NCBI GenBank assembly: GCA_943354165.1
Contig: CALRBH010000001.1
Location: 16,828 to 80,827 of the forward strand
Source of the DNA: Candidatus Uhrbacteria bacterium RIFOXYB12_FULL_58_10
Lineage (GTDB): Bacteria; Patescibacteriota; Patescibacteriia; UBA9934; GWF2-40-263
Direction: 5' to 3'
DNA length: 64,000 nucleotides
Shown here piece by piece: positions 25,075 through 60,487 of the stretch (positions within the stretch are counted from its first letter, which is position 1; each line of letters opens with the position of its first letter). The position numbers were made by a program, and so were the translations under genes. The notes beneath the pieces were generated by a model that saw only the letters and a program-made list of their open reading frames with translations, was not told the origin of the DNA and searched no databases.

Positions 25075-25180
25075 GAATCGTTTATCCTCTTCTCGAATCC
25101 TCGCAGAGAGGATGCCGGAGGAGGGCTAAGCGATTAGCCTCAGTATCGCGGGGTAGAGCAGCCAGGCAGCTCGCCAGGCT

Positions 25181-33797: not shown

Positions 33798-33826
33798 ATG
33801 ATGGGGAAGGAAACGAGAAAGACATC

Positions 33827-34141: not shown

Positions 34142-34151
34142 ATAAGCCTGT

Positions 34152-35207
34152 TTGAGTTCGGAGACGATGGAAAGTTCAGAATTCCGTTGGGGGGGGGTCG
34201 CTTATAGGGCGGTTCGTAGCAAGTTGACTCATAAGTTTGAGGAGATTATTTCGATGGAAAATCTATGCCTGGCCTGGGAGGAATTTATTCGTGATAAAAG
34301 AGGCAAAAAAGATGTACAGGATTTCGCTCACAATCTTTCCGATGAGATTTTCAAGCTTCACGAAGATCTTTTGATGGGTGTTTATCTGCACGGGCCGTAC
34401 AAACATTTCCGGATCAATGATCCCAAGCCACGTGATATTCATAAGGCTCTGGTCCGTGATCGTTTGCTGCATCATGCCATCCATCGCCAATTATACCCGT
34501 TCTATGCACGCGTGTTTATCGCAGACTCGTTCTCCTGCCAGTCGGGAAAGGGTTTACATCGCGCGATTAACCGTTTTCGGAACATGGGGCAGAAAGAGAG
34601 TCTTAATCAGACAAGGACTTGTTGGGTTCTCAAATGCGACATTCGAAAGTATTTCGCAAGCGTAGACCACGCGACACTTCTCGCCATCCTGAAAGATCGT
34701 ATCGATGATACGCGTATAACTGGACTTCTTCAGTCGATCATCTCGAGTTTTGAATCGGCTCCAGGGAAGGGAATCCCGCTCGGCAATCTCACAAGCCAGC
34801 TCTTCGCAAACATCTACCTCCATGAGTTCGATGTATTCGTAAAGCATCGGTTGAAGGTGAAGTGGTTCGTAAGGTACGCCGATGATTTTCTCCTGCTGTC
34901 TCATGATCGCGACGCGTTGGTTCAGCTGCTTCCCCTGATGAGCCAGTTTCTTTTAGATCGACTGGCGCTGGTGATACATCCTCATAAAATCGTCCTACAG
35001 ACTCTTGCTTCCGGGGCGGACTTTCTCGGATGGATTCAATTTCCGCACCAGAGAGTTCTCCGAACAAAAACGAAACAACGGATGTTTAGTCGGGTTAAAA
35101 ATCATCCCACGCAAGAAACACTCAAGTCTTATTTAGGCCTGCTGAGCCATGGGAATGGATTTTGTTTACAGACACAGATCATTAATGAGCATTGGCTGCG
35201 TTCCTGA
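34152..35207 (+). CDS. DGR reverse transcriptase
   Basis: YADDFLL catalytic motif; IPLGNLTSQ (I/LGxxxSQ) motif typical of DGR RTs; ENLCLAWEEF N-terminal motif (start may be 34254). Confidence 0.85.
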   Translation: MSSETMESSEFRWGGVAYRAVRSKLTHKFEEIISMENLCLAWEEFIRDKRGKKDVQDFAHNLSDEIFKLHEDLLMGVYLHGPYKHFRINDPKPRDIHKALVRDRLLHHAIHRQLYPFYARVFIADSFSCQSGKGLHRAINRFRNMGQKESLNQTRTCWVLKCDIRKYFASVDHATLLAILKDRIDDTRITGLLQSIISSFESAPGKGIPLGNLTSQLFANIYLHEFDVFVKHRLKVKWFVRYADDFLLLSHDRDALVQLLPLMSQFLLDRLALVIHPHKIVLQTLASGADFLGWIQFPHQRVLRTKTKQRMFSRVKNHPTQETLKSYLGLLSHGNGFCLQTQIINEHWLRS

Positions 35208-36871: not shown

Positions 36872-36952
36872 AGAGTTAGTAGTAAGTAGTTAGTAGTAAG
36901 TAGTCGTAGTAAAAATTTACTAACTACTTACTACTAACTACTCTCTTACGTT
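36872..36952. repeat. TAGTAG-palindromic intergenic element, copy 1
   Basis: agttagtagtaagtagttagtag… hairpin with the complementary ctactaactact arm. Confidence 0.7.
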
Positions 36953-40913: not shown

Positions 40914-41007
40914 TAAGTAAAAAGTAGTTAGTAGAAAGTAGTCAAAAACTATTTTCTACGCTGAAACTACTAACTACTAACTACTAACTACTATCTACTA
41001 ACTTACG
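40909..41007. repeat. TAGTAG-palindromic intergenic element, copy 2
   Basis: tagtaagtaaaaagtagttagtag… / …ctactaactactaactactaactactatctactaact. Confidence 0.7.
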
Positions 41008-42767: not shown

Positions 42768-42792
42768 GCGAAGGTTTGGGAGGTTTGGGAAG

Positions 42793-42827
42793 TCCGGAAG
42801 GTTTGGTCCTTCCGGATTTTGCTTTTT
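42793..42827 (+). terminator. rho-independent terminator (tccggaagg…ccttccgga + TTTTGCTTTTT)
   Basis: 9-bp perfect stem followed by T-run, just downstream of rpsU. Confidence 0.7.
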
Positions 42828-42887: not shown

Positions 42888-43616
42888 ATGAATCTGCAAG
42901 AACAAGTCAAAGCCGACGTTGTCCTCGCGATGAAAGCGAAGGAAGCTGCAAAGCTTTCCACACTCCGATTGCTGAAATCCGCTCTCACCAACAAAGAGAT
43001 CGAATCCGGCGCGCCGCTCACGGATGAGGTGGCACTTGTGGTGGTGAAGGCACAGGTGAAACAGCTCAAGGATTCGCAAGCCTCGTATGAAGCCGCGAAT
43101 CGCGCGGACGACGTCGCTTCCGTGAAGGCGGAAGTCGCCGTGCTCGAAGCATACTTGCCGGCACAGATGTCTGATGACGCATTGCGCGCGGCCGTTTCGG
43201 GCGCATTATCTGCGGCAGGTATTTCTGCAAAAGCGGATATGGGGAAGGCGATGGGGATCGGGATGAAGGCCGCGGCAGGACAGGCTGACGGCGCCCGCGT
43301 GAAGGCGATGGTCGAATCGATCCTCGTCGTATTCGTGTTGCTTCTGATTCTTGCGCCGACCGCGGCACTGGCAGCGACGAATACGGGCATCTCTCCGCTC
43401 ATTCCGCTTGGCATCAAGATTTTCCGCGCGTTTCTTCTCATGCTCGGCATCGTCTGCGTGAACATGATTCTTATGGGCGGATTTGAGGTGATGGTGGCGG
43501 GCGGGCGGGACGATGGGCACCATCACGGGATGGAAAAGATGACTACGGGATTCATCGGCAGCATGGTCATTGCCGCGCTTTTCTCCGCCGCTACCGTGGC
43601 TATCGATCAGCTTTAA
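42888..43616 (+). CDS. GatB/YqeY-domain protein fused in frame to a C-terminal two-TM pilin-like hairpin (or internal start MVESIL giving a separate small secreted membrane protein)
   Basis: N-terminal ~150 aa YqeY-like; C-terminal …LAPTAALAATNTG…FLLMLGIVCVNMILMGGFEVMVAGG-RDDGHHHGMEKM-TTGFIGSMVIAALFSAATVAI matches the N-terminal module of the two giant proteins downstream. Confidence 0.65.
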   Translation: MNLQEQVKADVVLAMKAKEAAKLSTLRLLKSALTNKEIESGAPLTDEVALVVVKAQVKQLKDSQASYEAANRADDVASVKAEVAVLEAYLPAQMSDDALRAAVSGALSAAGISAKADMGKAMGIGMKAAAGQADGARVKAMVESILVVFVLLLILAPTAALAATNTGISPLIPLGIKIFRAFLLMLGIVCVNMILMGGFEVMVAGGRDDGHHHGMEKMTTGFIGSMVIAALFSAATVAIDQL

Positions 43617-43689
43617 AAGTAGATAGTAGTAAGTAGTTAGTAGTTAGTAGAACAAAAACTACTAACTACTTACTACTATCTACTAACTG
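43617..43689. repeat. TAGTAG-palindromic intergenic element, copy 3
   Basis: aagtagatagtagtaagtagttagtagttagtag-aacaaaa-actactaactacttactactatctactaact. Confidence 0.75.
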
Positions 43690-43750
43690 CGTTCAGAATA
43701 GTGTAGAATATATCCACAACGGAGGACGCTTTGTCCTTACGTCGCTTTCC

Positions 43751-45604
43751 ATGCTCATGCGACGCAACCCCACCACATTCCTGCGCGTTGTCGCGCGCAA
43801 CAGGCCAGCTAAGCTGGCCATGGCTACGGTTGTTTTCACGATCGGGCTTTTTGCGTTCCTCCTGCATCCGGACTCGGCGTTTGCCCAGACGGCGTTTGAG
43901 CAGTTCGGTTCCACCACGCGGTTGGGCCAGGAGAGTCTTCCTATTATCATCGCACGTATTATCCGGGTGGTGCTTGGCACGCTCGGGATCATCACGGTGG
44001 TACTTCTCCTGTACTCAGGCTTCCTCTGGATGACGAGCGCGGGGGATCCGAAGAAGATTGAACGCGCCAAGTCCATCATCAAGAACGCCGTCATCGGGCT
44101 CCTGATTATTTTTTCCTCCTTCGCGATTACCCAGTTCGTCTTGAACGCCTTGTTGCGTGCAACAGGGCTGGGAGGCATTTCCGGAAGAGATGCGGGCGCC
44201 TTCATCGAACCAAACTCCGGTTCCCTTGGGGCTGGGGTGGTGCAGGACCACTATCCGCCGCGCAACGCCGTGGATATTCCGCGCAACGCCAAGATTTTCG
44301 TGACGTTCAAGGAACCTGTGGATCCATCTACGGTGATTGCTGGGTTTGTTGAAGGCGCAACACCGCAGAGCAACGCTCTTGATCCGGACGCGGTCGCCAT
44401 TGTCGCGTCTGAACCTCCAAACAGCCTGCCGCTTCCTGGGAATTTGGTGGCCGTGTCTGTGAGTGAAGATCGCAAGACATTCGTGTTTGATCCTACCGAG
44501 CTGCTCGGTTCGGCGACACGGGATACGAACTACACCGTTTCGCTTACCGGCAACATCAAGCTCGCCAACGGACGCGATGCGTTTACGGGTGTATTTTCAA
44601 GCGGGTATTCCTGGACCTTCCAAGTCTCCACGGTCGTGGACCTCACGCCGCCGCAAGTGGTTTCCACAACGCCTACTTCCGGGGCCGAGCATTTCCCGAA
44701 TTCACTTGTCCAGATCACGTTTAACGAACCGATGGACCCGGTGGCCTCAACGGGAACGCAGAATCCTCCTACGAAAAATTTTACCAACATTTCCGTATTT
44801 AACGGCCCTGTTGCTACTGGAACGCGCGTGACAGGAACGTTCTCCATCGGCAATGGCTATCGCACGCTCGTATTCGTTCCAGACGTGCTATGCGCCAAGG
44901 ACCAGTGCGGCAGTGACGTGTTCTGCCTGCCAGTGAGCAGTCCGATCAATGTCGTCGCACGGGCCGCTACGCTTTCTACAGATCCTCCACAGGCCGTGCT
45001 GATCGGCGTTTCCTATGACGGCATCGTGGATGCGGCAGGGAACAGTCTCGACGGGGACGAAGACGGAATTGCCGAGGGTCCTGGTGCGGATTCCTATGGG
45101 GATCTGCAATTCACGACTGGAGACAAGGTGGACGCCCGCCAGCCGACGATCATCGCCGTGGATCCAAACTTGAATGAAGGGGAGATTGCAACGGATCGTC
45201 CCGTGACGGCCACATTCTCCATGCCGCTTATGGCCACGAGCGTGAACGGTTCGAGCGCCCAGATGTGGCCGGACCCTGACCATGAAATGTTCTTCGTGCC
45301 GCGCGTAGATGCCGTTACCGGAACTCCTCCGGCCAGATGTGAGGCGGATGGATGCTCGCGAGTTCAAATCCTCCATGGAGCCTTCCTGCCTCTTGATGTC
45401 GAAGGCGGGCCGTATTCCTACTATCCGATGCTCACCAAGGACATTAAGGGCAGCAACCAGTTCTGCATGTATCCGGCGAGCGGGCCTGCAGAAACGGGTT
45501 CTTGCGTCGCAACGCTTGCACGGCCGTTCTGCTGCAACGGCGTCGCGCAGAGAGACGCCTGTACAACCATCGGCACGAATCGTTCGCTTCCCCCTACGCC
45601 ATAA
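43751..45604 (+). CDS. secreted surface protein (617 aa) with N-terminal signal peptide + two-TM pilin-like hairpin, then bacterial Ig-like domains
   Basis: SP MATVVFTIGLFAFLLHPDSAFA; hairpin IIRVVLGTLGIITVVLLLYSGFLWMTSAGD-PKKIERAKSIIKN-AVIGLLIIFSSFAITQFVL; repeated V(T/F)F.EP(V/M)DP.T Ig-like starts. Confidence 0.8.
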   Translation: MLMRRNPTTFLRVVARNRPAKLAMATVVFTIGLFAFLLHPDSAFAQTAFEQFGSTTRLGQESLPIIIARIIRVVLGTLGIITVVLLLYSGFLWMTSAGDPKKIERAKSIIKNAVIGLLIIFSSFAITQFVLNALLRATGLGGISGRDAGAFIEPNSGSLGAGVVQDHYPPRNAVDIPRNAKIFVTFKEPVDPSTVIAGFVEGATPQSNALDPDAVAIVASEPPNSLPLPGNLVAVSVSEDRKTFVFDPTELLGSATRDTNYTVSLTGNIKLANGRDAFTGVFSSGYSWTFQVSTVVDLTPPQVVSTTPTSGAEHFPNSLVQITFNEPMDPVASTGTQNPPTKNFTNISVFNGPVATGTRVTGTFSIGNGYRTLVFVPDVLCAKDQCGSDVFCLPVSSPINVVARAATLSTDPPQAVLIGVSYDGIVDAAGNSLDGDEDGIAEGPGADSYGDLQFTTGDKVDARQPTIIAVDPNLNEGEIATDRPVTATFSMPLMATSVNGSSAQMWPDPDHEMFFVPRVDAVTGTPPARCEADGCSRVQILHGAFLPLDVEGGPYSYYPMLTKDIKGSNQFCMYPASGPAETGSCVATLARPFCCNGVAQRDACTTIGTNRSLPPTP

Positions 45605-45610
45605 AACGTT

Positions 45611-48600
45611 ATGCGCCGATTCCTCACATCAACTCTCCTTATCTCACTCCTCCTTGCGCTCGCAGGGATCGGGATGGTTCAGGTTGGAGCGGTGCATGCG
45701 CAGGACCTGGCTACGTTCGGGGAGCAGGCGGGATTTACCACAACTGGCGACCTCACCTCGATCATTGCTCGGTTGATCCGCACCGCCATTAGTTTCCTCG
45801 GCATCATCGTAGTAATCTTCATTTTGTACGGAGGTTTCCTGTACATGACGGCCGCAGGGGATGAGACCCGCATCACAAAAGCAAAAAATACATTGAAGAA
45901 TGCCGTGATCGGTTTAGTGATCGTTCTTTCCTCGTTCTCGATCGTCACGTTTATTCTTTCCAGGCTTTCGGACGCCACGGGAACGGGAAGCATTATTGGA
46001 TCCGATGGGGGCGGCGGCTTTACTCCGCCGGGCGGGGGAACGCGCGCGAAGATTTTTGCGCTTGAGGGCAGTAATGCCGCGGCGTGCGAAGGGATCATCC
46101 AGAACATTCGACCGCAACTCGTATTCACACAGCAGGTGGACCCTGCCACGCTTGTGGGAGGGATTGTGGTGACCAACGGTGCCGTGGCTGTGCCAGGAGC
46201 GTTTACTACGTCCGGACGCACGGTGACGTTCACGCCAACGGAGGTTTGCGCGGCAGCTCCGACTGAACGCTGTCTTCCTGCAAACTCCACCATTCAAATC
46301 ACCCTCAATCCTGCCGTCCTGAAGAGCGCAAGTAAACGGCCGCTCACCTGTACCGCGGATCCAGGCTGTTCCGTGAATTACACCACCGGAAGCGCCGTGG
46401 ACACGCGTGCACCTTCGGTTTCGATGAAGGCTCCGGAGAGCGGATCATCCTTCCGACTCGGGGATATCGTTTCTTTGCAGGCGGCGGCGATTGATGATGT
46501 CGCGCCGGCGATCGTCTCCTTCACGGCGGCTGGGGATAACATCTTTGATTCATCGGATCGCACGCCGGGGACACTTCCTGGCGAGTTCTTGTTCGCGACA
46601 GATGCGTCCCAGTGGGATACGGCTGGGTTCGAGGCAGGACGTTCCGTTGCGGTCGCAGCTTCCGTGAACGATTGCGCCGGACATACCGCAAATGCTTCGT
46701 CGGTCTCCGTTTTCCTCCGTGCGGATTCCTGTTTCAACGGTCAGCTTGATACTTCACTCGGTGAAACGGATGTTGATTGTGGTGGCACAGGCGCGTTCTC
46801 CTGCGGAGCCTGCGAAGGGCAGTCGTGTACCACGAACGCGGATTGTTCCGCGACCGGCGCCTGTGAGAATGGCCGATGCGTCGCCGTTGTCCGCATCGAT
46901 TCCATTTCGCTTAACGATGGCGCACCTGGGAACTTTGTCTCTATCAACGGCGTCGGGTTCGGAACGACGCCAGGTCCGGTGGCATTTCTTGGAGCCGCGG
47001 CGGGCGATGCAACAAACGCTCAGGTCGTTTCATGCGACACGGTGGTTCAGTGGGCACCTACCCAGATCATCGTGCAGGTTCCCGCTGGCGCAAAAGACGG
47101 ACCGATCCGCATTACGAATGCGGCGGGCCAAATCGACAGTTCAAACGACGATCGCGGAGCTACGTTCCAGCCATTCGACGTGAATGGCGTTGAGCGTCCA
47201 GGATTATGTGCACCATCTGTGGTGCTTCCGGGTCTCGGCGCTCCAGGCGACACGGTTCGAATTTCTGCTTCGAAACTTGGATCGGATCGCGGTAGCTCGA
47301 TGCTGTTTTTCTCGGACGTTCAGGCGAGTGCATATCTCTCCTGGGGTGACACTTTGGTGTCCGCAATTATCCCTAACGTGAACGCACGCGCCCATTCCGT
47401 CCAAGCGTTTGTTGGGGATAACCGGTGTACGATTACGACGACGCTTGCCTGTGAACGCGACGCCGATTGCGGTCCGGCCGGCGGCGTTTGTGCGTTCAAC
47501 CGCCAGGGTTCGAACATCGTGAAGCTCAACGTGGTTTCCTCGAGCACTACAAGCGCACCGCTCCTCTCGACGGTTTCACCAGCAACGGGACCGATCGGGC
47601 AAACCATTACGCTCGCTGGGAACGGATTCGGCACCACGCGCGGTACTGTGCGGCTTGTAAGTGCGGCGGACGATTCCAAGGTTGCTCTCGCAAGCATTGA
47701 TTTTCCTGCGGCTTGCGGCGACGGACTCTGGCGCGATGATCTCGTGACCGTGATTGTTCCGGCCGCCTATCAGGGTGCGGGCGGAGCGGTGCAGCCAGGC
47801 GTTCATAAGATGCGCGTCGTGCGCACGCCGGACGGTACGGGATCAAATGAAATCGACTTTACGATCACTGCAGGCGTTCCAGGGCCAAGCATCTGTAAGA
47901 TCGATCCAGTTTCCGGTCCAATCGGAACTCCTCTCACTATTTCCGGCGCCAAGCTCGGAACCCAGAAGGGAACCGCGACGTTCTTCGGCGTAGCGGCTCC
48001 GGTCGCGGCCCCGGCGGAATCAAGCTGGTCTGCGGATGCCATCACGAATTTCCCGGTTCCTGTTGGCGCACAAACGGGTCCGATGAGCGTACAGACCGCA
48101 GGGGCAGCGGGGGTTTCGTCAAACACGCTGCCGTTCCAGGTTTCTGATTGTCGTCAGGCCAACAACGTCTGCCCAGTTGGATCCGAATGCTGTGGCAATG
48201 GAACGTGTGCCACTTCTTGTGCCCCATCCATCGAGGAAGCGTATTACATGTGGCGCACCTCCACCGGCCCGATTCCAAAGGTCCCGCGGGTGATCGTTCA
48301 GTGTAACGATGAGCTGCTTTCGCAGTCCCCGTGGGAAGGATTCAGCACACCTTCGCATGTCTGTCTGGAAGCGGATGTTGTTGCGACCTTCTCCGTCGGC
48401 GCAGACATTGCGGCGCCGATCATGGACATCACGACGCTCACCGCGGCAAACATTCAAGTCGAGAAGTGCGCAGCCTCTGGATCGGATCCGTGCGGAGACG
48501 GAAAACGCACGCAAGGACCGGTCGGGGTAATTGTTCCTACCGATTCGAGTTTCAAGTTTACGCATGCAGCGCCGTTTGAGCCGAGCACGCGCTATCGCGT

Positions 48601-51600
48601 GACGCTCAAGGGCGGTTCCGCAGCAGGAGTCATTCGTTCGGCGGCACCAGCATTTGTTCCCATGGAATCGGATTACAGCTGGGAATTCGTCACCGCCGCC
48701 GCGGGGACAGCCTGTACTATGGGTTCCGTTTCTGTTTCGCCGCGTGCCTCGCTTATTCTGAATGTGAACGGAAAGACCTCGTTCCTCAGCGCTCCTCGTG
48801 ATGCGCAGGACAGCTGCATCCAGCTTCCTTGTAAGGTAAGTCAGGGTTGGGTGTGGACTCCTGTTGGTAACCCAATCGCCACGCTTGTTTCCCCCGTTGC
48901 TAGCATTCCGCCAAATCCAGACGGTGATGCTTGCCGTGCCGAAGCGACGGCCTTGAAGGAAACCCCCATCGGCGCTCCGCTCAAAATCCGCGCCACTGCG
49001 ACCGATGCACCAGGCGATCCATTCGGGGAAGCGGACCTTACTATTACGTTCCTGGAACCGAAGGTCATCTCCTTTATTCCTGCCTGCGATACCGCCTGCA
49101 TCAACGCGCTTCTTGAAGCGGAGTTCAACGTCGCCATGAATCCCGCGACCATTTCGACGGGGACGGTTCGTGTCTTCTCCTGTATCAATGCCCTTTGTCT
49201 CGATGGTCTTACGCCGGTTTCGATTCTTGCACCAACATACAACGGCTTTTCTGGGAAAAACCTGCTTTCTATCACCACACAAACCGACCTTGCCCCGAAC
49301 ACCTATCACCGCGTGATCCTTTCCGGGAACATTGAATCGGCGAATAGTATCAAGCTCTCGCGCTCCGGAGGGAACTTCAAAAAGCGCGGGGAAGACGGAC
49401 CGACCAATGAGGACTACTCGTGGATTTTCCGGACAAAGAGCGACGATTCCGCCACGACCATCAACGAAGCGCTTTGCCGCATCGTTCGCGTTGAGGTGAA
49501 GCCGGAATCCGCCACCGTACAGGTGATTGGCGAGCGCGCGGAGTTCGTGGCTTCGCCGTTCAGTGCGCCGGACGAATGTTCCGCGGAAGGGCAGAAGATT
49601 AAGGGGACGGGGATTGTCTGGCAGCCGTGGACGAGCGCGGACGTGGCCGACAATGTTCCGGATCCAGTTCGGGCGGCCGCGATGTTGAACTCGCCAGGCA
49701 TTTCCGGTGGCGTACAGACCATCGCCACCCTTCCTGCCGCGTGTACGTCTTCTTGCGTGCTTGCGGGAAACACCCTGACCGGACTTTCCGCCTGCGGAGA
49801 CAGCACCACCGATCTGCTCGCAGGCGAAGAATGCGACGACGGAAACCAAACGAACAATGACGGCTGCTCATCGGTTTGTCTGCACGAAGGAAGCCAAGCG
49901 ACAACCTGCGGTGACCGTTTCTCGAATCCTGGCGAAGAATGTGACGACGGAGGCCGAGTAAACGGTGACGGTTGCTCTTCCGTATGTTTGCGTGAGGGAT
50001 CCATCGTGGCCAACCAATGCGGAAACGGCTTCCTTGATGGCGATGTAATCATCGGCGGGGAAGAGTGCGATACTCTCCTTTCGCCTACCGGCTGTTCTTC
50101 CGAATGTCTCTTCACTGGCAATAGTGTTTCAAACGCGACGGGCCGCTGCGGGAACGGCACGATCGAAGCGTCCGCGGGCGAGCAGTGTGACGGCGGAGCA
50201 AAGTGTTCCTCGCGCTGTCTCCTTGTGGGAAATTTGAATAACGATTGCGGTGACGGAAACATCGATGCAGGCGAAGCTTGTGATGATGCGAACCGTTTGA
50301 ACGAAGATGGTTGTTCATCGATCTGTCTGCGCGAAGGTTCGTCTGCGTTCTATCCGACCGCTTCATTCTGCGGGGATACGCGCGTGGGCATCGGGGAGGA
50401 TCCGGCTTGTGAATCGCCATCAGGAACGGCGGTCGCGGCGGGTCCTTACAGCGCCATGCAGTCATTGCCGGCCGCCGAACAAGAGATCGAAACAGACACG
50501 AAGATCGCCGTCACGCGCCTCACCGCGAGCGTGGGCGGACAGTCGGATACCGCCACGTTCAACATGGAGTGTTCCTGCCAGAGCGATAACGCCTGTGGAA
50601 ATACGAACGTGAACGGTTGTGGATTGTCTGGTTGCTGTTCCGTACGCCCGACAATTGTTTCCACCGTTCCGACAAATGGTCAGTCAAGCGTGTGTCGCAA
50701 CACGGAAGTAAAGGTGCATTTCGACAAGCCGATGGATCAGGCTTCGTTTAACGACCACGCCTACCTTGAACTGGTTGGTGCGGGCGCCAACTGTCCATCG
50801 ACACATACCCGAGTCGCCTCGGCCAACGGCGGATGGTTCGCTGGATTTGTTCAAAGCGTGCGTGATGCCATTACTTGGCTCGTGGGGAGCGAAGCGAATG
50901 CGGCACCCGTCCCAGGATCCTGCATTGTTCCAATCACGTTCCGCACCGCGCCGAATGCGGGCGGATCTGACGTATTCCTGCAGCTTAGCCAAGCGCTGAT
51001 TCCAAACGCTACCTATCGCATCGTGGTTGAACGTGATGGAAATGCTTCTGATGCGATTCGCGACGGCGTATTGAGTACAGCCGGGGTTGGGCTCGTAAAG
51101 GGTCCGGCGGACACGCAGATCAACTTCACCTCATCGTTCACTACCGGCGGAACCGTTTGCGGCCTCGATGCGGTTGAGGTGACCGATCTCGGACGCACGG
51201 ACGCGAGCGACCTCATCAAGAAGAGCCCTGGATTCTTCTCGAAGCAAAATGAAACGCACACGCTGCACGCCACGGACCTTTCCAAACAGAACGGTCAGCT
51301 TGAGCCTATTCAGCCGATCGTCGGATCTTACTCGTGGACTCACGCTTGGGTTTCGACGCCGATTGATACGACGCCTGAAAACGTGATTAGCCTCGCCTTG
51401 CCAGTGCCCGCACCTGCCGGTCCTGTCGTGCAGGAAATGATCGCAAGGTCCGTCGGGAAAAACGGTGAGGAAACCGTTACGGTAAATGCTGCGATCACGA
51501 CAGACGTTTTCAATACGCCAACCACTACTGGACGCATCGTGAAGGGGACCACCACCCTTATCGCGTTCGTGTGTGAAAACCCATGGCCGAAGTTTGACGA

Positions 51601-52768: not shown

Positions 52769-52770
52769 GT

Positions 52771-55700
52771 ATGATTGCTCGCGCGCGATTCCAACCGTTC
52801 CGCGTTCTTGTCCTCGTCCTGTTCATCGTGTTCGGGACCGGGCTTATCGATCTTCAACCGGCACTTGCGGTCGCGCCGCGCGTTACAGGCTTCTTTGTTC
52901 CATTCCCTGCGGCGGACGGTACATTCACGGTTGGTACTACTGTGGTTATTGGCCTCACGTTCGACCAAGACGTGACTCTGACAGGCACTCCACAGCTGAT
53001 TTTGAATACCGGTTCTCCGGCGACGACGACCATAAATCTCACCAGGTTCAATTCACCCCGAACGTTCCTGTTTAACTACGCAATAACAGCAGGAAATTCT
53101 TCCCCCGACCTGAGTTATGTTAATTCGAGCTCGCTCGTATGTGTTTCCCCTTGTGTAATAAGGAACGCTGGGAACGAGCTCGCCAATCTCCAGCTTCCGG
53201 CGCCTGGCACCGCTGGCTCCCTCAGTGCTGTCAGAAACATCGTGATCGACGCGGTTGCTCCAAGTCAGCCTAGTATTGATTTTGACGCTGCGGACGATAC
53301 TGGTTCATCCACCACGGACAATATCACCAACAAAACATCCGGTTTGACGTTCTCCGGCCGCGCTGAAGCAAATTCCACGGTAAGACTTCTGGAAGGGAGT
53401 ACGGTCCTGGGCACAACCACCGCTCTCGCGAATAACACCTGGAGCATCGACCCCGTCTCACTAGCGGCGGGTGTTCACCCTGTGCGGGTAACTTCGACGG
53501 ATGCCGTTGGGAACGTGTCGGTGGCTTCAACTATTATTTCGTTAACGGTAGACACGACTCGCCCCACAGTTACGATCAACAAAACGGCCGCCCAGGCCGA
53601 TCCGACTGGTACACAGCCGATTGGATTTACGACGACGTTTACCGAAACCGTGACTGGATTCATCGGTACTGACGTGACTACATCAGCGAGTACGGCTCCT
53701 GGAACGAAGACGATAAATATTACCGGAGGTCAAGCGACCTATACTGCTTCTGTGTCCGGCGCGACCGGCACGGGAACCATCGTCGCGTCCATCGCTGCAG
53801 GCGTGGCAAGCGATACGGCAGGGAACCTGAACCTCGCCTCCACGAGCACGGACAATTCCGTGCAGTTCAACGCACCACCTCCACCACCTCCCCCAGCTCC
53901 TGCCCCTCCCACCGTCCTCTCCATCACACGGATCGACCCGTCACCCACCAGCGCCTCGACGGTTTCCTGGTCCGTGAGATTCAGCGAGCCCGTCCTGAAT
54001 GTAGATGCGACGGATTTTCACCTCTCCCCCATAAGCCTTACGGGATCAGGTAATATTCGGCTTTTGACGCAAGGATCCGGTCTTGCGGTATATACGGTTG
54101 CGGCGGATACGGGAACGGTCGCGGCCCCTGGCCCAGGAACGCTCAGGCTCGACCTTTTAGATAACGATTCCATTACGAGCGCAGCTAATTCGATATCACT
54201 CGGGGGTCCGGGTGCCGGCAACGCAAGCCTAAAGGGTGAGGAATACACGATCTCCGCCGCCGCTCCCGTACCTCCTGATCTTCTCAACACTATTATCTCA
54301 AGCGCGGTCGCCAATACCGAGCCGCCAACCAATGGGGTCTTCATTAACACTTCGGGGACTCCCACAAGCACGACGTTACGCAACGTTCGGGTTACGTTCG
54401 ATAGCAATAAGGCTGGAAGCGACACGTTTGCCTGTAAGATCGATGCGGAACAGTTCGCGCCATGCACTTCTCAATTCACTCGATCCGGTTTGAGTGTGGG
54501 CTCTCATACGTTTTCGGTTCAAGCCTCCCTTGGCGCAGAAACGGATGCGTCACCGGCGAGTTTTTCTTGGACGATCACGGCGGCGGCAACGGACTCGACT
54601 CCGGCCGTGCTTACATTTAACACTCCAGGCTCCGGCGCTGTCGTGAATGGGACTGTTTCTGTTTCCATTTCGGCAACAGACGCCTCGATGCCGGTCAGTG
54701 TGGCGTTGGCCGTGCCGTGTGGAAGCGTCTCAGGCGCGAACCCGCAATCCGTCGGCGCCGCGGGCGCAGCGACCTTTAGTTGGAATACATTGGGGGGTAC
54801 GGCATGCGTAAACGGCAACAGAATCCTTTCTGCCATTGGACGTGACTCTGCTTCGCCCGCGAACACCTCCGCGGCAGTTACGCGTACGGTGAACGTAAAC
54901 AATGTGGCACAGGTCGCACCTCCTCCGATCCCAAACACGACGGATACTGACGGCGACGGCGTTCTCGATGTGAACGATGGGGCGGCGAATGATCCCTGTG
55001 TTCCCAATGCAAGTTCTCCTGCATGTCCACCACCTCCAGCTGGAGGGACTATTACGCTTTTCTCAAATCCAGGAAGCGGGGCTGGTACCGCGTCAGTATG
55101 TGTACAGACCGGCGCCGGACCGTCTTCCGTCAACATCCCTTCAACCGGCTTCGTTTCCGCTCCGCTCTTCTGCCCGGCGACCGGCTCCAATCCGTTCGGA
55201 AGTTCTGCGACGTGCGGAGATGGCGTGAAGGGTCCGTTCGAGGTTTGCGAGATCGGGGAAGTGAAAACGGATACCGCGAGCTGTAACGCTCCCGTGTGTA
55301 CAAGGGGAGGCATCCGGAATTTCTTCTGCATAAAGGATCTGAACAACGGTGCGTGTCGATTCCAGACGGTGTCAGATTCCAACCTCGCTTCCTGCGTTCC
55401 ATTTAGCTGCGGAAACGGGGCGGTGGATCCTGGGGAAGCGTGCGATGACGGAATTTTAAACGGCACGCAAGGACATTGCGGCCCTGATTGCAGTTTCGCC
55501 AGTGCCTTCTTCTGCGGCGACGGATTCCTCGGTGGAGGCGAACAGTGTGACTGCGGAAACTCTGACGCAAACCGCACGAAACCGAATTCGTTTGCTCTCT
55601 TGAGGAGTTGTTCCAAGGTAAATGGCCAGTACACGACAGGGACGGGGATCAGCTGCGACTTTGACTGTACGGCCCCTGGTCCTTCCTGCGGGGACGCAAT

Positions 55701-58032
55701 TGTGAATGGTCCGGAAGCTTGTGATCCGGCCGTACCTGGCGGAGGGTTTGAAGAATACGGTGGAGCGTTCTGTCTCGGTGGAGCCAATAACGGCCAGAAG
55801 TGTTCCATTGCAGGGAACTGTCCAGGGGGAAGTTGTGGAGGTAATGCAGCGACCAACGCGTGCGTTCCCTCTAAAATTTGTACCGCTGGAGGGACAAACG
55901 AAATAGGGAATTCTTGTTCAACGAACACACAATGCGACGGTATCGTTTCGATATCGGTTTGTGATGAATCAAGCTGCGACGCCCAGCAAGGCATTATATC
56001 CGGCATCTGTTCTGTTCAGGCGTTCTCGACGACCAGGTCCCGTACCTGCAATGCAAGAGGATCGACGGATCAATGCACATTCATTAAAGCAAATACGTTC
56101 AATGGGTTCGGCGCCTGCAAGGGCGGATCACAACGCTGCGGAAACGGAGCGAAAGAAGGGACGGAGCAGTGTGACGACGGAAATACCAAAGAGGAAGATG
56201 CCTGTACGAACAGCTGTCTCACGAACGTCTGCGGAGATGGAAAAGTGAACCGCGATGCTAACTCAACCGAGTCCTGCGATGACGGGGCGAATAATGGTCG
56301 ACAGCCTGGGTCTGGGGAAATTCCTTACAATGGAACGGCGGTTTTCTGTACCGCGGACTGTAAGTTCCGGACCATCTCCGGCCCGTTCTGCGGGGACAAC
56401 GTGAAAAATCTACCGCAGGAATCGTGTGACGGGGCGCAGGTGAATAAGACCTATTGTTATAATGCAACGACACGAGAAGGGGGTAAGGTGGCTTGTACCC
56501 CACCTAATTCCGCTGCATTTATTGCCGCAGCTACGGCATCTGCACAAGCCGCAGTCACTGCTGCTGCAGCTTCGGCGAATCCAACCCAAGCAAATATTGC
56601 GGCAGCCGCTGCGGCTCAATCCGCCCTTACTGCAGCCTCTGTTGGAGTCTTCATGACCGGTTCGTCTCCAACTACATGTGGTTCACCAGCTACTTGTACG
56701 ACGGTTGGTGTCTGTGACGGAGGTGTTTCTTCAGGGCTGGTTTGTCGAATGGGAACAGCTGCAGATTGTACGGGTGGGACCTGCAAGCCTCCGCAATGTA
56801 CGGCAGATTGTAACGGCAGCTGTCCATTTGATTTCGATCAAATAAGTTTGAAAGTACAATCGGAGATTCCTGGTTCGCTTCGAAAAGATGACATTTCCCT
56901 CTTTAGTTTCCAGAACGCAAATGGGGACGTACCGGATAATGCCACGTTGTTTATCCCAGCATGTGCGGTAGGACGTTCTCTTCAGGTTGATATTGCGCGC
57001 CCCAATGTTGTTCTTCCGACCGTGGATGTCATGATCATGATCGATACCTCCGGAAGCATGGTGAGTAGTGTGGGTGGAGGGCTACGCCGAATTGACGTGG
57101 TCGTCGATGCCGTGAAGCCGATGATTGAGACGCTCATTTCTACCTATCAACAGCAAGGTGGGACCATGCGTATTGCTGTGGGGAGTTTCGAGCTGAGCAG
57201 TGAACACCGAGCTGCACATGGAGCCAATGCGAGTATTGACCAGGAGTTTACTTCTTCTATTCAGCCTTTGCAGGACATGATTGAAACCTATCGCGCGATC
57301 GATAACAACGGCGGAACGCCAACCGAAGCAGGCTTGCAGGTGAGTTTGGACGTATTCAAACCCGAGACGTCTACAGCTCAACGAAAGATTCTTGTGTTCA
57401 TGTCTGATGGAGCGCCGAGCGATGCCGCTGCAATCGCTGGATGTACTACGAACTTATCTGATCTCGCAAAAGTGGGAACGGTCGAACTGGCTCGTGTGAC
57501 AAACTACAATACTGGATGTGGAGGCTTCATCGTTCTATCAGATGTAGTAGGAATTAAAACCGCCGCTGCGCAAAATATCGAAATCTACACCGCAACCGTT
57601 GCGCCCGTTTCGGATGCTCCGTTGATAAATTTTATGCGGCACATTTCTGACGACGGTTGTCCTGCTTCGCATTATGCAAATCCGACCGCGAACTCTTCGC
57701 CAGCGTTTAGTGATGTCACCGGTTGTACGGTGAACCCGCAGAACAACATCCAGTATGCGTATAGCGGGATTACCGCCGTGGCTATCGAGGAGATGTTCCT
57801 GTCCATCAGTAACTCCATTCTCGGCGTCACGCCGTCGTTCGTCCAGTCCGGGACGGGTGGGGCTGTGGTCAGTTCATTCCCCGTGTTGATCGGTGACGGA
57901 ACGGTTCTGCCGATACCAGATTTCTTCGTGTGTGGTCCGACGGAACAGAGCATCCCGCTGTCCGTGTCATTCAGCGGAACCGGGAGCCTCGACTTTGAAG
58001 ACTTCTCCCTTGAATATTGTCCGATTCAGTAA
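52771..58032 (+). CDS. giant secreted surface protein (1753 aa): signal peptide, Ig-like repeats, Cys-rich repeats, C-terminal von Willebrand factor A domain
   Basis: SP; polyproline PPPPPPPAPAPP linker; CGNGAVDPGEACDDG and GTEQCDDGNTKEEDACTNSCL repeats; MIDAS motif DTSGSM at ~57043 with downstream vWA core. Confidence 0.85.
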   Translation: MIARARFQPFRVLVLVLFIVFGTGLIDLQPALAVAPRVTGFFVPFPAADGTFTVGTTVVIGLTFDQDVTLTGTPQLILNTGSPATTTINLTRFNSPRTFLFNYAITAGNSSPDLSYVNSSSLVCVSPCVIRNAGNELANLQLPAPGTAGSLSAVRNIVIDAVAPSQPSIDFDAADDTGSSTTDNITNKTSGLTFSGRAEANSTVRLLEGSTVLGTTTALANNTWSIDPVSLAAGVHPVRVTSTDAVGNVSVASTIISLTVDTTRPTVTINKTAAQADPTGTQPIGFTTTFTETVTGFIGTDVTTSASTAPGTKTINITGGQATYTASVSGATGTGTIVASIAAGVASDTAGNLNLASTSTDNSVQFNAPPPPPPPAPAPPTVLSITRIDPSPTSASTVSWSVRFSEPVLNVDATDFHLSPISLTGSGNIRLLTQGSGLAVYTVAADTGTVAAPGPGTLRLDLLDNDSITSAANSISLGGPGAGNASLKGEEYTISAAAPVPPDLLNTIISSAVANTEPPTNGVFINTSGTPTSTTLRNVRVTFDSNKAGSDTFACKIDAEQFAPCTSQFTRSGLSVGSHTFSVQASLGAETDASPASFSWTITAAATDSTPAVLTFNTPGSGAVVNGTVSVSISATDASMPVSVALAVPCGSVSGANPQSVGAAGAATFSWNTLGGTACVNGNRILSAIGRDSASPANTSAAVTRTVNVNNVAQVAPPPIPNTTDTDGDGVLDVNDGAANDPCVPNASSPACPPPPAGGTITLFSNPGSGAGTASVCVQTGAGPSSVNIPSTGFVSAPLFCPATGSNPFGSSATCGDGVKGPFEVCEIGEVKTDTASCNAPVCTRGGIRNFFCIKDLNNGACRFQTVSDSNLASCVPFSCGNGAVDPGEACDDGILNGTQGHCGPDCSFASAFFCGDGFLGGGEQCDCGNSDANRTKPNSFALLRSCSKVNGQYTTGTGISCDFDCTAPGPSCGDAIVNGPEACDPAVPGGGFEEYGGAFCLGGANNGQKCSIAGNCPGGSCGGNAATNACVPSKICTAGGTNEIGNSCSTNTQCDGIVSISVCDESSCDAQQGIISGICSVQAFSTTRSRTCNARGSTDQCTFIKANTFNGFGACKGGSQRCGNGAKEGTEQCDDGNTKEEDACTNSCLTNVCGDGKVNRDANSTESCDDGANNGRQPGSGEIPYNGTAVFCTADCKFRTISGPFCGDNVKNLPQESCDGAQVNKTYCYNATTREGGKVACTPPNSAAFIAAATASAQAAVTAAAASANPTQANIAAAAAAQSALTAASVGVFMTGSSPTTCGSPATCTTVGVCDGGVSSGLVCRMGTAADCTGGTCKPPQCTADCNGSCPFDFDQISLKVQSEIPGSLRKDDISLFSFQNANGDVPDNATLFIPACAVGRSLQVDIARPNVVLPTVDVMIMIDTSGSMVSSVGGGLRRIDVVVDAVKPMIETLISTYQQQGGTMRIAVGSFELSSEHRAAHGANASIDQEFTSSIQPLQDMIETYRAIDNNGGTPTEAGLQVSLDVFKPETSTAQRKILVFMSDGAPSDAAAIAGCTTNLSDLAKVGTVELARVTNYNTGCGGFIVLSDVVGIKTAAAQNIEIYTATVAPVSDAPLINFMRHISDDGCPASHYANPTANSSPAFSDVTGCTVNPQNNIQYAYSGITAVAIEEMFLSISNSILGVTPSFVQSGTGGAVVSSFPVLIGDGTVLPIPDFFVCGPTEQSIPLSVSFSGTGSLDFEDFSLEYCPIQ

Positions 58033-58035
58033 GCT

Positions 58036-58785
58036 ATGACTACTCGCCTGCGTATCGGTTTGATCATCGGCGCGCTCCTTCTCATCGGTGGGATCGGGCT
58101 TGTGTTCTGGCTTAGGAGTCGCGGGCTTGAGTCCGCGCGAAACTCGCTTGAACAGGCCCAACAGCAGGTTGAGGCGGTGAAGGAGACATGTAAGGAAGGC
58201 GATTCGGCTTGTCTGAACACGGTGGTTACGGATGCCGCAGAAGAATTTAAGAGTTCCGCTGCCTGTAAGGAGCTGGCAGGGGAAGCAGCCGATAATTGCG
58301 TATGGACCGTCGCGCGCTCATCGAACGATGAAGCGGTATGTGCGGAGATCGTGAACAGTGAATGGAGCGTCAGGTGTCATGACGGCATCCTGCTTTCAAA
58401 GGCCATGAGTTCAAAGGATCCGTCCGTGTGTTCTCGGATCACTTCCGTTCCGCAGAAGGACCAGTGTTTGGCGGCGATTGATCCCATTACCGCGCAGAAC
58501 TGTTCGTCTCGCGGGAAGAGCGTCGAGGAATGTGCTGAACTTCAGAGCTATGAAACGGCGATCGCGTCTGGAGACTATTCTGCGTGCGCGCAATTCAGCG
58601 GAGAACGGAAGGATTCGTGCATTGACGTTACTGCCGAGTCCGATCCTGACGCCGACGGTCTGTCCGGCGCTGATGAAGCTCGATACGGCACTTCAAACCA
58701 GAAACCCGACACAGATGGCGATGGGTTTACTGATGGTGATGAAGTCGCAGGTGGCTTTAATCCAAACGGCCCGGGCAAATTGTGA
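58036..58785 (+). CDS. single-pass membrane protein, Cys-rich ectodomain, C-terminal Asp-rich thrombospondin-type-3-like Ca-binding repeats
   Basis: TM IGLIIGALLLIGGIGLVFWL; DPDADGLSGADE…DTDGDGFTDGDE repeats. Confidence 0.75.
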   Translation: MTTRLRIGLIIGALLLIGGIGLVFWLRSRGLESARNSLEQAQQQVEAVKETCKEGDSACLNTVVTDAAEEFKSSAACKELAGEAADNCVWTVARSSNDEAVCAEIVNSEWSVRCHDGILLSKAMSSKDPSVCSRITSVPQKDQCLAAIDPITAQNCSSRGKSVEECAELQSYETAIASGDYSACAQFSGERKDSCIDVTAESDPDADGLSGADEARYGTSNQKPDTDGDGFTDGDEVAGGFNPNGPGKL

Positions 58786-58800
58786 TATGATTAGCGAAAG

Positions 58801-58878
58801 AAGTTAGTAGTAAGTAGTTAGTAGTAAGTAGTCGACAGGACTTTTTCTACTATCTACTAACTACTATCTACTAACTAC
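58801..58878. repeat. TAGTAG-palindromic intergenic element, copy 4
   Basis: aagttagtagtaagtagttagtagtaagtagtc…ctactatctactaactactatctactaactacg. Confidence 0.7.
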
Positions 58879-58882
58879 GCCT

Positions 58883-59563
58883 ATGTTCGACAATGCAAAA
58901 CCAACTGCAGAGCCTGAGGATATCTTTGAGTCGGCCGATACGGGGGCCTCGCCACCCATGTCTCCGCCGCGCGTCCCATCGATGACGACTCCGCCCATGG
59001 CGCGTCCGCAACCTGCAGCGCCCATGATGTCTGCTCCCGTCGCACAAGCTCCTGCTTATGTGCCCTCTGCAGAAGTGAGTGGGGGAGGAGGATTCCCATG
59101 GAAGGGGATTCTTGTCGTTATGGTGATTCTTGGTGTCGTTGGGGGTGCGGCGGCGCTTTCATACATGTTGCTTTCAGCGCGAACACCTTCGACCCCCGGG
59201 ATTCCGAACATTACGGATTCTGTTTTGGAAACTTCGGAACCAATTCCATCTCCCGTGCCTTCCTCCGCTCCTGCTCCGGTTTCGGCGCCAGCGTTTGAAC
59301 CTCCGCCACCCACTGTGACGGACGAACCTGACCAGGACTCCGACGGCCTGTCCGATTCGCAGGAGGCACAGCTTGGGACCAGTCCTATTTCCGCAGATAC
59401 GGACGCCGACGGGCTCTTCGATGCGGAAGAGGTGAACGTCTACCAAACCAACCCGCTCAATCCAGATACGGACGGTGACACGTTCATGGATGGTGCGGAA
59501 GTTCAGAATGGATACAACCCTGCCGGTCCTGGAAAACTTACGCAGACTCCAGGCGCCTCCTAA
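58883..59563 (+). CDS. membrane protein, Pro-rich N-terminus, single TM, C-terminal thrombospondin-type-3-like repeats (paralog of 58036 and 59570)
   Basis: TM ILVVMVILGVVGGAAALSYMLL; DQDSDGLSDSQE…DTDADGLFDAEE…DTDGDTFMDGAE. Confidence 0.75.
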   Translation: MFDNAKPTAEPEDIFESADTGASPPMSPPRVPSMTTPPMARPQPAAPMMSAPVAQAPAYVPSAEVSGGGGFPWKGILVVMVILGVVGGAAALSYMLLSARTPSTPGIPNITDSVLETSEPIPSPVPSSAPAPVSAPAFEPPPPTVTDEPDQDSDGLSDSQEAQLGTSPISADTDADGLFDAEEVNVYQTNPLNPDTDGDTFMDGAEVQNGYNPAGPGKLTQTPGAS

Positions 59564-59569
59564 TCGTTC

Positions 59570-60487
59570 ATGTTCGAGAAATCTCCCACATCTCCTCCAA
59601 CCCCCGTCGCTCCTCCACCCAAAACCGGGCCGGCCATCTTTGTGATGCCTGAGGGGTATCGCGGCGGGACGGGGAAGTTGGTGCAGCCTAAGGTTCCGGA
59701 GCCAGTAAAGCCGGCCGTCGTGGTTATTGCACCACCTCCACCTCCGCCTCCTGTTTCGGCCGGACTCACCAAGCCCGTCGTCAAAAAGAAGAGTCACGCC
59801 AAGTTGATCGTCATCATCGGGCTTCTGTTTATTGCGCTCTTGGGGATCGGAGGATATTTCCTTTTGAATTCAGCGACCCTTGCACCTGCCCCTGCTCCAG
59901 TACCGATTCCTGAACCCGTTCCAGAACCAATCCCGGCACCTATCCCTGAACCGATTCCAGAACCCGTGGGTCCGACTTCTGGCATTGATACGGATGGGGA
60001 TGGATTGACAGATGTAGAAGAGAATTCTATTTATCGAAGCGAACTTTCAATTGCGGATACGGATCAGGATGGATATTCGGACGGATTGGAAGTGGTGAAT
60101 CGTTACAATCCTGCGGCCGTGGCTCCTAAGACACTGCTGGAAGCTGGAATCGTACGGCCGCAAGTCTCGGGAGATATTTCTTTTCTTTATCCCGTAACTT
60201 GGATCGTCCAAGAAGCGGAGGACGGGTCTATGATCCTCACGACCGCGACCGGGGAAACGATTACGTTCCGGACCGTGCAGTCAGGTGAAGGACCAACCCC
60301 AGATGCCGTGGCGTTTACCACCAAGAACGGCTTGCAGGGTTACCGGCCAGCGCGCATCGGAGACCCATTCTATCTCGGGATCCCAGAAGGCGATTTGGCG
60401 GTATTCACCACGTCACTTGGTACACAGACCACCATCGAATATACCTCGACGATTGATCTGATCGTCAACAGCGTAATGTTTAACTAG
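59570..60487 (+). CDS. membrane protein, Pro-rich N-terminus, single TM, PEPxP linker, thrombospondin-type-3-like repeats, C-terminal beta-rich domain
   Basis: TM LIVIIGLLFIALLGIGGYFLL; PIPEPVPEPIPAPIPEPIPEP; DTDGDGLTDVEE…DTDQDGYSDGLE. Confidence 0.75.
   Translation: MFEKSPTSPPTPVAPPPKTGPAIFVMPEGYRGGTGKLVQPKVPEPVKPAVVVIAPPPPPPPVSAGLTKPVVKKKSHAKLIVIIGLLFIALLGIGGYFLLNSATLAPAPAPVPIPEPVPEPIPAPIPEPIPEPVGPTSGIDTDGDGLTDVEENSIYRSELSIADTDQDGYSDGLEVVNRYNPAAVAPKTLLEAGIVRPQVSGDISFLYPVTWIVQEAEDGSMILTTATGETITFRTVQSGEGPTPDAVAFTTKNGLQGYRPARIGDPFYLGIPEGDLAVFTTSLGTQTTIEYTSTIDLIVNSVMFN

Follow-up and report, generated by a model that had tools for sequence, protein, structure and literature searches.

Arrays of VirB2-like pilin genes are known from the Patescibacteria. 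Such an array is essential in the T4SS (type IV secretion system) cluster of Southlakia epibionticum (PMC10633639), and a census of the phylum (Quinonero-Coronel et al., 2025; PMC12102498) counted 441 of them, defined as two to eleven pilin genes that are divergent paralogues and lie in tandem or with one non-pilin gene between. Paralogues within an array share 25% identity on average and 54% at most, and no adhesins were detected in that study; the arrays have also been reviewed (PMC12857230). Outside the Saccharibacteria, next to nothing is known of how bacteria of the Candidate Phyla Radiation (CPR/Patescibacteria) become attached to a host or a surface. [quoted passage not shown] We analysed 64,000 nucleotides of contig CALRBH010000001.1 (positions 16,828 to 80,827, hereafter the window), in which three consecutive genes beginning at 42888, 43751 and 45611 share one module, in which a two-helix hairpin of the VirB2 pilin type comes after a signal peptide. 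Two copies of the hairpin run on into large ectodomains and the third lies behind a YqeY domain, and these fusions of a pilin to giant adhesins and to YqeY appear to be undescribed.

Results

The presence of a shared module in three consecutive proteins, proposed in an initial annotation of this DNA, was borne out by hydropathy, pairwise matches and a hidden Markov model (HMM) of the module. Each protein has a hydrophobic segment of the N-terminal type and two transmembrane helices. The modules of the 617- and 2385-residue proteins are 53% identical (E 8e-28), while the C-terminal 70 residues of the YqeY open reading frame (ORF) share 29% identity with the module of the 2385-residue protein (E 1e-6) and match an HMM made from 617-type modules only (E 3.7e-7). 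The core motif reads LLYSGFLWMTSAGD, ILYGGFLYMTAAGD and ILMGGFEVMVAGGR in the three copies; the consensus proposed for it is slightly off for the third copy. Cleavage sites of the AxA type, predicted by the -3/-1 rule only, are AFA↓Q, VHA↓Q and ALA↓A.

Comparison with curated families placed the module among conjugative pilins. The Pfam family T4SS_pilin (PF18895) matches residues 61-130 of the 617-residue protein (32.4 bits) and residues 56-115 of the 2385-residue protein (37.8 bits), both above the Pfam cutoff of 26.6. Both pilin-headed proteins also match NCBIfam NF045849, the 'Mbov_0395 family pilin-like conjugal transfer protein' (E 8e-10 and 2e-9), at 37-38 bits (38.3 bits for the 617-residue protein), which is just under the 40-bit cutoff. 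At E<0.01 Pfam gives no match to the hairpin of the YqeY ORF, which is detected only by custom HMMs and pairwise comparison. All 26 matches from a database search with the module alone were PF18895 proteins, some of which also carry PF04956 (TrbC) and one of which is named 'pilin'. This search returned 24 full-length family members of 113-232 residues, and its two best matches (194 and 235 residues) resemble truncated giants from short contigs. Annotated plasmids yielded two matches only, one to a gene called 'pilin' and the other to a gene for an 'Mbov_0395 family pilin-like conjugal transfer protein'. The latter is carried by a Pontibacillus plasmid, 4 kb upstream of genes for an ATPase like VirB4 and for a large M23 hydrolase, and its product matches the 617-residue protein directly (E 6.9e-12, in a small database). 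Some orthologues of the 617-residue protein match PF04956 as well. The resemblance to TrbC/VirB2 pilins that had been suggested from the letters is thus upheld by the above-threshold PF18895 matches, by PF04956 in some orthologues, by NF045849 and by the Pontibacillus protein.

We also compared the module with known structures. AlphaFold2 modelled the hairpins with helices at 15-50 and 55-92, and at 63-94 and 100-137. Foldseek searches of the PDB with the module gave a best E of 2, and the conjugation pilus of Aeropyrum (8dfu) ranked 28th (E 5.6); by structure comparison the hairpin is indistinguishable from any other helical hairpin, of which there are thousands. A sequence-profile search of the PDB with the module found no pilin and nothing significant. 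Conservation within the 617-residue family was then considered, where mean pairwise identity is 56% in helix 1, 54% in helix 2, 26.5% in the signal peptide and 49% in the ectodomain. The hairpin is about twice as conserved as the signal peptide and about as conserved as the folded ectodomain, which argues for a specific constraint, unlike that on an ordinary membrane anchor. Taken together, a profile match above a curated threshold and a predicted signal peptide with two helices joined by a short basic loop indicate that the module is a member of the VirB2/TrbC-like pilin family, distinct from a generic anchor. The proteins are, however, not small stand-alone pilins, as 480 and ~2,260 residues follow helix 2 in the 617- and 2385-residue proteins, respectively; in the third copy the chain stops after helix 2, but its hairpin is preceded by 162 residues made up of YqeY and signal sequence.

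The family to which the module belongs is very large. A profile of the module recovered 97,646 cluster representatives at E<=1e-3 from a representative library, and the top scorers (most of the top 150) are single chains with 2-17 tandem PF18895 modules, so that the ranking is dominated by such chains and is uninformative on fusions of a single module to an ectodomain outside the Uhrbacteria. One of these chains, P0271, has 17 matched stretches in 1775 residues, and it and its like (proteins P0267-P0415, P0003-P0005 and P0008) amount to pilin 'arrays' in one polypeptide. We found no description of tandem multi-module PF18895 chains in the papers cited here. Since chains of up to 17 modules occur, continuation of the polypeptide after helix 2 is tolerated in the family.

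The 617-residue protein (43751..45604, + strand), identified by Pfam T4SS_pilin and Big_5 and by NF045849, represents a family that we call p600. It consists of a signal peptide (residues 1-45, with the predicted site AFA↓Q), the VirB2-like hairpin (residues 63-137, nt 43937-44161) and a rod of Big_5 immunoglobulin (Ig)-like domains that ends in a Cys-containing C-terminal beta domain (residues 161-617). Its AlphaFold2 model (pLDDT 89.1) shows an Ig rod with a helical hairpin, and Foldseek matched the model to tandem Ig-like domains. There are 540 homologues, many of them from Candidatus Uhrbacteria, and the best 120 are all 549-676 residues long and nearly all annotated with PF13205 and PF18895. 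Ala45, at position -1 of the predicted site, is invariant in 119 p600 sequences. At the other end of the protein a conserved Leu-Pro-x-(Thr/Asn/Pro) motif lies 2-10 residues before the stop codon (45584-45601 in the window), with L613 and P614 present in at least 90% of p600 sequences. No hydrophobic tail follows the motif, which is therefore not a sortase signal; hydropathy found no C-terminal transmembrane segment, as needed for sortase (LPXTG) anchoring, in any of the three large proteins.

The 2385-residue protein (45611..52768, + strand; annotated from Pfam, TIGR02232 and the AlphaFold2 module hairpin) begins with a signal peptide (residues 1-30, predicted site VHA↓Q) and the hairpin (residues 48-126, nt 45752-45988), and continues with Big_7, two TIG domains, Cys-rich acidic repeats (DUF4215), Big_5 and a conserved, unassigned C-terminal region. 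It is followed by a secreted protein of 1753 residues (52771..58032, + strand; Pfam Big_13, DUF4215 and VWA_2) in which Pfam and hydropathy found no pilin module and only a signal peptide of its own (residues 1-33, predicted site ALA↓VA). The VWA domain of this protein (residues 1419-1557, nt 57025-57441) has an intact metal ion-dependent adhesion site (MIDAS; D1425xSxS, T1517 and D1547). The ectodomains hold 89 and 71 cysteines, and the Cys-rich repeat myxo_disulf_rpt (NCBIfam TIGR02232) was found at E 3e-19, in the 2385-residue protein, and at E 1.3e-8. The adhesin-type ectodomains that had been read from the sequence were confirmed by matches to Big_5, TIG, DUF4215, Big_13, the VWA domain with its MIDAS and the myxo_disulf_rpt repeats. 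Sequence searches of the PDB with the C-terminal 655 residues of the 2385-residue protein and with the VWA end of the 1753-residue protein returned nothing significant. The two products are by far the largest surface proteins encoded in the window.

These two proteins together correspond to a single chain in related genomes. The 2385-residue protein can be aligned collinearly from end to end with residues 1 to ~2400 of 60 giants that are single chains (31-44% identity), with the hairpin bin being the best-conserved part, and residues ~780-1753 of the 1753-residue protein, comprising Cys-rich repeats and VWA, are collinear with the last ~950 residues of the giants. Residues 1-~780, which hold the separate signal peptide, Big_13 and other Ig-like domains, have no counterpart in the giants and are lineage-specific. 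This collinearity indicates that the two genes are a lineage-specific split of a single ancestral giant. The same split is found in the nearest relative (loci L001/L002), and it is therefore not an assembly error. Two further loci, L048 and L060, have the giant in two ORFs divided at other positions (1715 + 1542 and 1586 + 1916 residues), through either independent gene fission or assembly frameshift errors.

Species-representative genomes were scanned and yielded 177 relatives, and we retrieved 80 species-level loci, mostly of Candidatus Uhrbacteria, with 10-kb flanks. The ~600-residue pilin-Ig gene is directly followed by a pilin-headed giant ORF in 77 of the 80, with a small pilin gene intervening in three of these 77; the three loci that remain are cut off by the end of a contig. 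Giants that are complete in the retrieved DNA (n = 43) have a median length of 3342 residues. The setting is constant, with genes for signal peptidase I, HisRS, ribosomal protein S21 and YqeY upstream and single-pass proteins with thrombospondin type 3 (TSP3) repeats downstream, and the locus is present in every Uhrbacteria genome that could be examined. Recurrence in related genomes, on which the initial proposal had been made to depend, is thus clear.

The smallest copy of the hairpin is found in a protein of 242 residues (42888..43616, + strand), defined by a Pfam YqeY match (E 5.8e-39), hydropathy, and the module and small-pilin HMMs. The YqeY domain (residues 5-146, nt 42900-43325) is followed by an internal hydrophobic stretch resembling a signal peptide and ending ALA↓ATN (residues 145-162, nt 43320-43373), and by a small VirB2-like hairpin (residues 176-242, nt 43413-43613), which the small-pilin HMM matches with an E of 1.9e-30. 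Across the 80 loci, this HMM detected YqeY and hairpin in one frame in 32 related loci in addition to the window. About 12 loci have a separate small pilin gene after YqeY, and in the nearest relative the two genes overlap by 4 nt. In some 30 loci that are more distant, YqeY has no small pilin as its neighbour, and three of them have one between p600 and the giant instead; overall ~47 of 80 loci have a small pilin next to the pair or within it. All fused proteins pass directly from the end of YqeY to a hydrophobic stretch of 15-20 residues that finishes with a site of the AxA↓A type, and the mature pilin comes next. Moreover, ~54 database clusters of 235-272 residues, from independent assemblies and all annotated only as GatB/YqeY, span the whole fusion. 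The YqeY-pilin fusion is thus real and recurrent. An internal translation start for the small pilin was considered and rejected as the main route, since the fused orthologues have no conserved Met at the junction.

A link to type IV secretion was sought in the window and in the related loci. No VirB3, VirB4, VirB6, VirD4 or other T4SS or type IV pilus Pfam family was found in the substantial ORFs of the window, and a phmmer search for VirB4-like ATPases, of limited sensitivity as it used one Firmicutes query, found no match in the window or in the 80 loci with their flanks. The pilin module is thus not linked to a T4SS cluster in any of this DNA, and the earlier suggestion that the adhesins are displayed on a pilus tip or shaft gained no support from neighbouring T4SS or type IV pilus genes. 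Among 36 Uhrbacteria metagenome-assembled genomes (MAGs) entered in Table S1 of the census, 18 have VirB4; the gene is recorded there as absent for the source MAGs of L001/L002 and of L004, and both of these contain the locus (PMC12102498). Table S3 lists one VirB4-negative Uhrbacteria genome with two adjacent 'VirB2' hits, marked 'VirB4 proximity: No' and given no comment on size (PMC12102498), and these hits are probably orthologues of the p600-giant pair. The genome from which L015 was taken is listed with VirB4 and TrsD and no VirB2 (PMC12102498), and L015 holds all three pilin-module genes. A link to T4SS is therefore possible, as MAG incompleteness limits the negative evidence. The T4SS census either counts the giants as ordinary 'VirB2' or misses them, which affects inferences on pilin arrays and T4SS in the phylum.

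All seven ORFs that had been reported between 42888 and 60487 were recovered from the ORF list and translations, on the + strand and with the same coordinates. Their packing, initially described as 3-7 bp apart, is indeed close, with gaps of 1-6 nt at 45604/45611, 52768/52771, 58032/58036, 59563/59570 and 60487/60489, but two gaps are wider (134 nt ahead of 43751 and 97 nt ahead of 58883), and each of these holds an intergenic hairpin. The last three ORFs, all on the + strand, encode proteins with one transmembrane segment each and Pfam TSP3_bac repeats, as had been proposed. The first, of 249 residues (58036..58785), has an N-terminal transmembrane segment (residues 2-28), a region rich in Cys and, at its C-terminus, a Ca-binding TSP3 repeat of the bacterial type, and among the loci with downstream DNA its homologue directly follows the giant in many, such as L003, L004, L010 and L051-L061. 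The second (226 residues, 58883..59563), which also has homologues in related loci, and the third (305 residues, 59570..60487) both have a Pro-rich N-terminus and TSP3 repeats, with transmembrane segments at residues 68-99 and 73-105, respectively, and the third has an additional C-terminal domain.

The two intergenic hairpins belong to a TAG-rich repeat family (D1). One, at 43618..43691 between the YqeY-pilin and 617-residue genes, has a 28-bp stem (dG -41.9 kcal/mol, z -9.2), and the second lies within the block at 58802..58876 (dG -33.5 kcal/mol, z -4.4); further copies outside the block are at 36877-36936 and 40926-40999. The hexamer TAGTAG occurs 26 times in the window against 4.2 expected. 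Hairpin arms are built of TAGTAGT, TAAGTAG and TTAGTAG heptads, which place stop codons in every frame, and stems reach 28 bp. The motif AGTAGTTAGTAG was not found in any of 82 related loci, and the element is therefore specific to this genome. These hairpins may be terminators or a repeat resembling repetitive extragenic palindromic (REP) elements, and the one at 43618-43691 is probably a transcript-end or REP-like element. The elements noted earlier are thus real and interrupt the block, but they do not bracket it, as two lie inside, the others at 36.9 and 40.9 kb, and none on the 3' side; they are general hairpins of the intergenic DNA in this genome and do not mark the locus. We rejected the possibility that they mark the boundaries of a mobile block, since they also occur outside it and are absent from relatives although the locus is syntenic there. 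A separate 13-bp GC-rich hairpin followed by a T-run lies at 42789-42820, between the S21 and YqeY-pilin genes; if it is a terminator, it would uncouple transcription of the two despite their conserved adjacency.

Other features of the window lie upstream. A complete diversity-generating retroelement (DGR) occupies 32543-35207, 9 kb from the pilin locus, with a variable region (33207-33329) at the 3' end of ORF 32543-33343, a template repeat (33682-33804) and a reverse transcriptase (RVT_1, 34152-35207); the repeats are 82% identical and nearly all mismatches fall at template adenines. Targeting of the adhesins by this element was rejected, as the variable region sits in another gene, outside the pilin locus. 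Two paralogous aminoacyl-tRNA synthetases of class II and of the Asp/Asn/Lys type, both with tRNA-synt_2 and OB anticodon-binding domains, lie head to tail and 1 nt apart at 9965-12911. An Rfam group I intron match (25581-25849, 56.7 bits) lies ~500 nt downstream of an intact tRNA-Met (region 24998-25849) and overlaps the 3' end of a PD-(D/E)XK endonuclease ORF (25209-25685, E 3e-47); no rRNA or other obvious host gene was found for it.

Discussion

The locus places two or three paralogous PF18895 hairpins side by side: a small copy, one that carries a ~600-residue Ig rod, and one at the head of a 2,300-3,600-residue chain of Ig, TIG and Cys-rich domains that ends in VWA. What can be regarded as secure is that these genes predict exported, Cys-rich, multi-domain proteins in which an N-terminal VirB2-type hairpin sets a long C-terminal chain outside the cell. 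In the mechanism that we propose, Sec would insert the chains and signal peptidase I would cut after AxA. The two ends of the hairpin would face the outside and the basic loop (..AGDxxKxxKAK..) the cytoplasm, and with this topology everything C-terminal to helix 2 would be displayed outside. Paralogous hairpins may pack side by side like VirB2 protomers, forming a hetero-oligomeric base in the cytoplasmic membrane, while the distal VWA-MIDAS and the Cys-rich acidic repeats would attach to a ligand carried by a host cell or a substrate. The 1753-residue piece would be secreted through its own signal peptide and presumably rejoin the 2385-residue piece, and the downstream single-pass TSP3 proteins could be accessory parts. 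In the YqeY fusion the old signal peptide would act as an internal start-transfer sequence, and cleavage would free the pilin and leave YqeY tail-anchored in the membrane. If the internal signal-peptidase site is used, this would be an unusual bacterial case in which a membrane pilin is released from a cytosolic carrier protein.

We tentatively read the locus as a core chromosomal one, conserved across the Uhrbacteria, that builds large cell-surface fibres on pilin-type, membrane-rooted, hetero-oligomeric bases, and put the probability of this at about 45%. The fibres most likely stay rooted in the membrane with no strict need for a T4SS, as the locus is universal, embedded among housekeeping genes and unlinked to T4SS genes. 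Several observations weigh against this interpretation. Oligomerisation of the hairpins and their surface location are predictions, and cleavage sites follow from the -3/-1 rule only. In about 30 loci the pair has no small pilin next to it. Conservation extends through the whole of the ectodomains (31-44% identity), which would suit a structural role in the envelope no less than host-specific adhesion. In Uhrbacteria with VirB4 and TrsD and no other listed VirB2 the locus could supply the pilins of a T4SS, and incompleteness of MAGs could explain part of the apparent absence of VirB4. Finally, p600 and giant hairpins from the same genome are more alike than those from different genomes (47.0% versus 42.4% identity, p 1e-7), but this excess disappears when the nearest other genome is used for comparison (46.5%, p 0.57), indicating phylogeny and no signal of interaction.

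A bolder form of the same interpretation is that the VirB2 fold has been taken out of the T4SS to make a self-assembling, T4SS-independent base for giant adhesive fibres, whose smallest member is a YqeY polyprotein cut internally by signal peptidase. We consider this speculative and rather unlikely as a whole. If true, a VirB2-type pilin joined covalently to an adhesin would be on record for the first time, and monoderm CPR bacteria would have a new way of assembling surface fibres.

The strongest alternative is a true T4SS pilus, in which a VirB4 machine encoded elsewhere draws the hairpins from the membrane and polymerises them. Its bulk subunit would be the small pilin, and p600 and the giant would serve as minor or tip subunits that bear adhesins, their C-terminal chains standing out from the filament surface. 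Homology of the module to VirB2-type pilins speaks for this, and a small pilin together with pilin-adhesin fusions would, by analogy, mirror the tip-adhesin layout of pili that carry FimH or VWA tip pilins. The Ced and Ted systems build VirB2-like pili in cells that have no outer membrane. Such archaeal conjugation-type systems are cited in the T4SS literature, T4SS loci of Patescibacteria carry essential VirB2-like arrays (PMC10633639; PMC12102498), and at least one Uhrbacteria genome has VirB4 and TrsD with no other VirB2 in the census (PMC12102498). Against these points, no T4SS gene lies within 10 kb in the 80 loci or anywhere in the window, VirB4 is entered for only 18 of 36 Uhrbacteria MAGs in Table S1 and not for two that bear the locus, and ~30 loci have no adjacent small pilin. 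A filament subunit with 3,400 extra residues also has no precedent among VirB2 pilins. On balance a T4SS pilus is possible but doubtful.

A structural role in the envelope is improbable in our judgement. Here the hairpins would hold in the membrane a scaffold, S-layer-like or spanning the cell wall, made of the universally conserved p600 Big_5 protein and the giant, and these would not be adhesins. Big_5 is by its Pfam name an SbsA-type Ig-like domain, and the locus is universal in the lineage, lies among housekeeping and division genes, and has ectodomains conserved throughout. However, the VWA-MIDAS, TIG and Cys-rich acidic repeats are typical ligand-binding modules of adhesins, and a single chain of 3,400 residues is unlike known S-layer subunits. 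That the hairpin is a generic signal-anchor resembling pilins by chance of hydrophobic composition, and the YqeY fusion an artefact of gene calling or assembly, is largely refuted and very improbable: transmembrane-rich segments can yield spurious profile matches, structure searches fail to separate this hairpin from thousands of others and the module of the YqeY ORF goes unreported by Pfam, but the matches are driven by a conserved polar loop motif, two independent curated models (Pfam and NCBIfam) agree and are joined by pairwise matches to annotated pilin-like genes, conservation of the hairpin is double that of the signal peptide, and an in-frame fusion is seen in 32 species-level loci as well as in ~54 clusters drawn from independent assemblies.

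With membrane-rooted fibres as the preferred interpretation, the predicted proteins make the locus a concrete candidate for building an attachment structure in these tiny bacteria. It ties the largest surface proteins to a defined membrane module, and thereby offers a concrete experimental handle.

In the wider family of conjugative pilins, VirB2, TrbC, TraA and the archaeal CedA1-type pilins share with the present module a signal peptide, two hydrophobic helices, a short basic loop and a predicted topology with both ends outside. Differences are that the module has no detectable sequence similarity to any solved pilin, that the likeness in fold is non-specific and that no assembly machine is linked to it; in addition, C-terminal trimming or cyclisation is not possible in the fused forms. 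The best curated match outside Pfam is the Mbov_0395/MMCAP2_0565 family (NF045849), found on integrative and conjugative elements and plasmids of monoderms, but its members are ~150 residues long, T4SS-linked and devoid of a large ectodomain, unlike the proteins of this locus.

FimH, a pilin fused to a lectin, and the VWA-bearing tip pilins RrgA, SpaC and Mfa5 combine a polymerisation or anchoring module with an adhesive domain in one chain. By analogy, the chains described here would have the same arrangement of module and adhesin, with the VWA-MIDAS placed distally. The pilin folds and assembly routes are unrelated, however, and the proteins of this locus are several-fold larger; the only trace in sequence to tip adhesins was one insignificant match to Mfa5 (E 0.41).

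Closest of all are the VirB2-like arrays of Patescibacteria, and the three consecutive module genes, at 53% and 29% pairwise identity, form an array as defined in the census (PMC12102498). The opinion of the initial annotation that no well-characterised system corresponds to the locus therefore holds for the fusions but not for the arrays (PMC10633639; PMC12102498): full-text searches of the literature found no description of giant-adhesin or YqeY pilin fusions, which are also unmentioned in PMC10633639, PMC12102498 and PMC12857230. Likenesses include PF18895/PF04956, divergent tandem paralogues, a monoderm CPR host and a chromosomal location. The array pilins of Patescibacteria are small, stand-alone and often beside virB4, whereas in the present locus two of three copies carry ectodomains of 480 to ~3,300 residues, one lies behind YqeY, and none is ever near T4SS genes.

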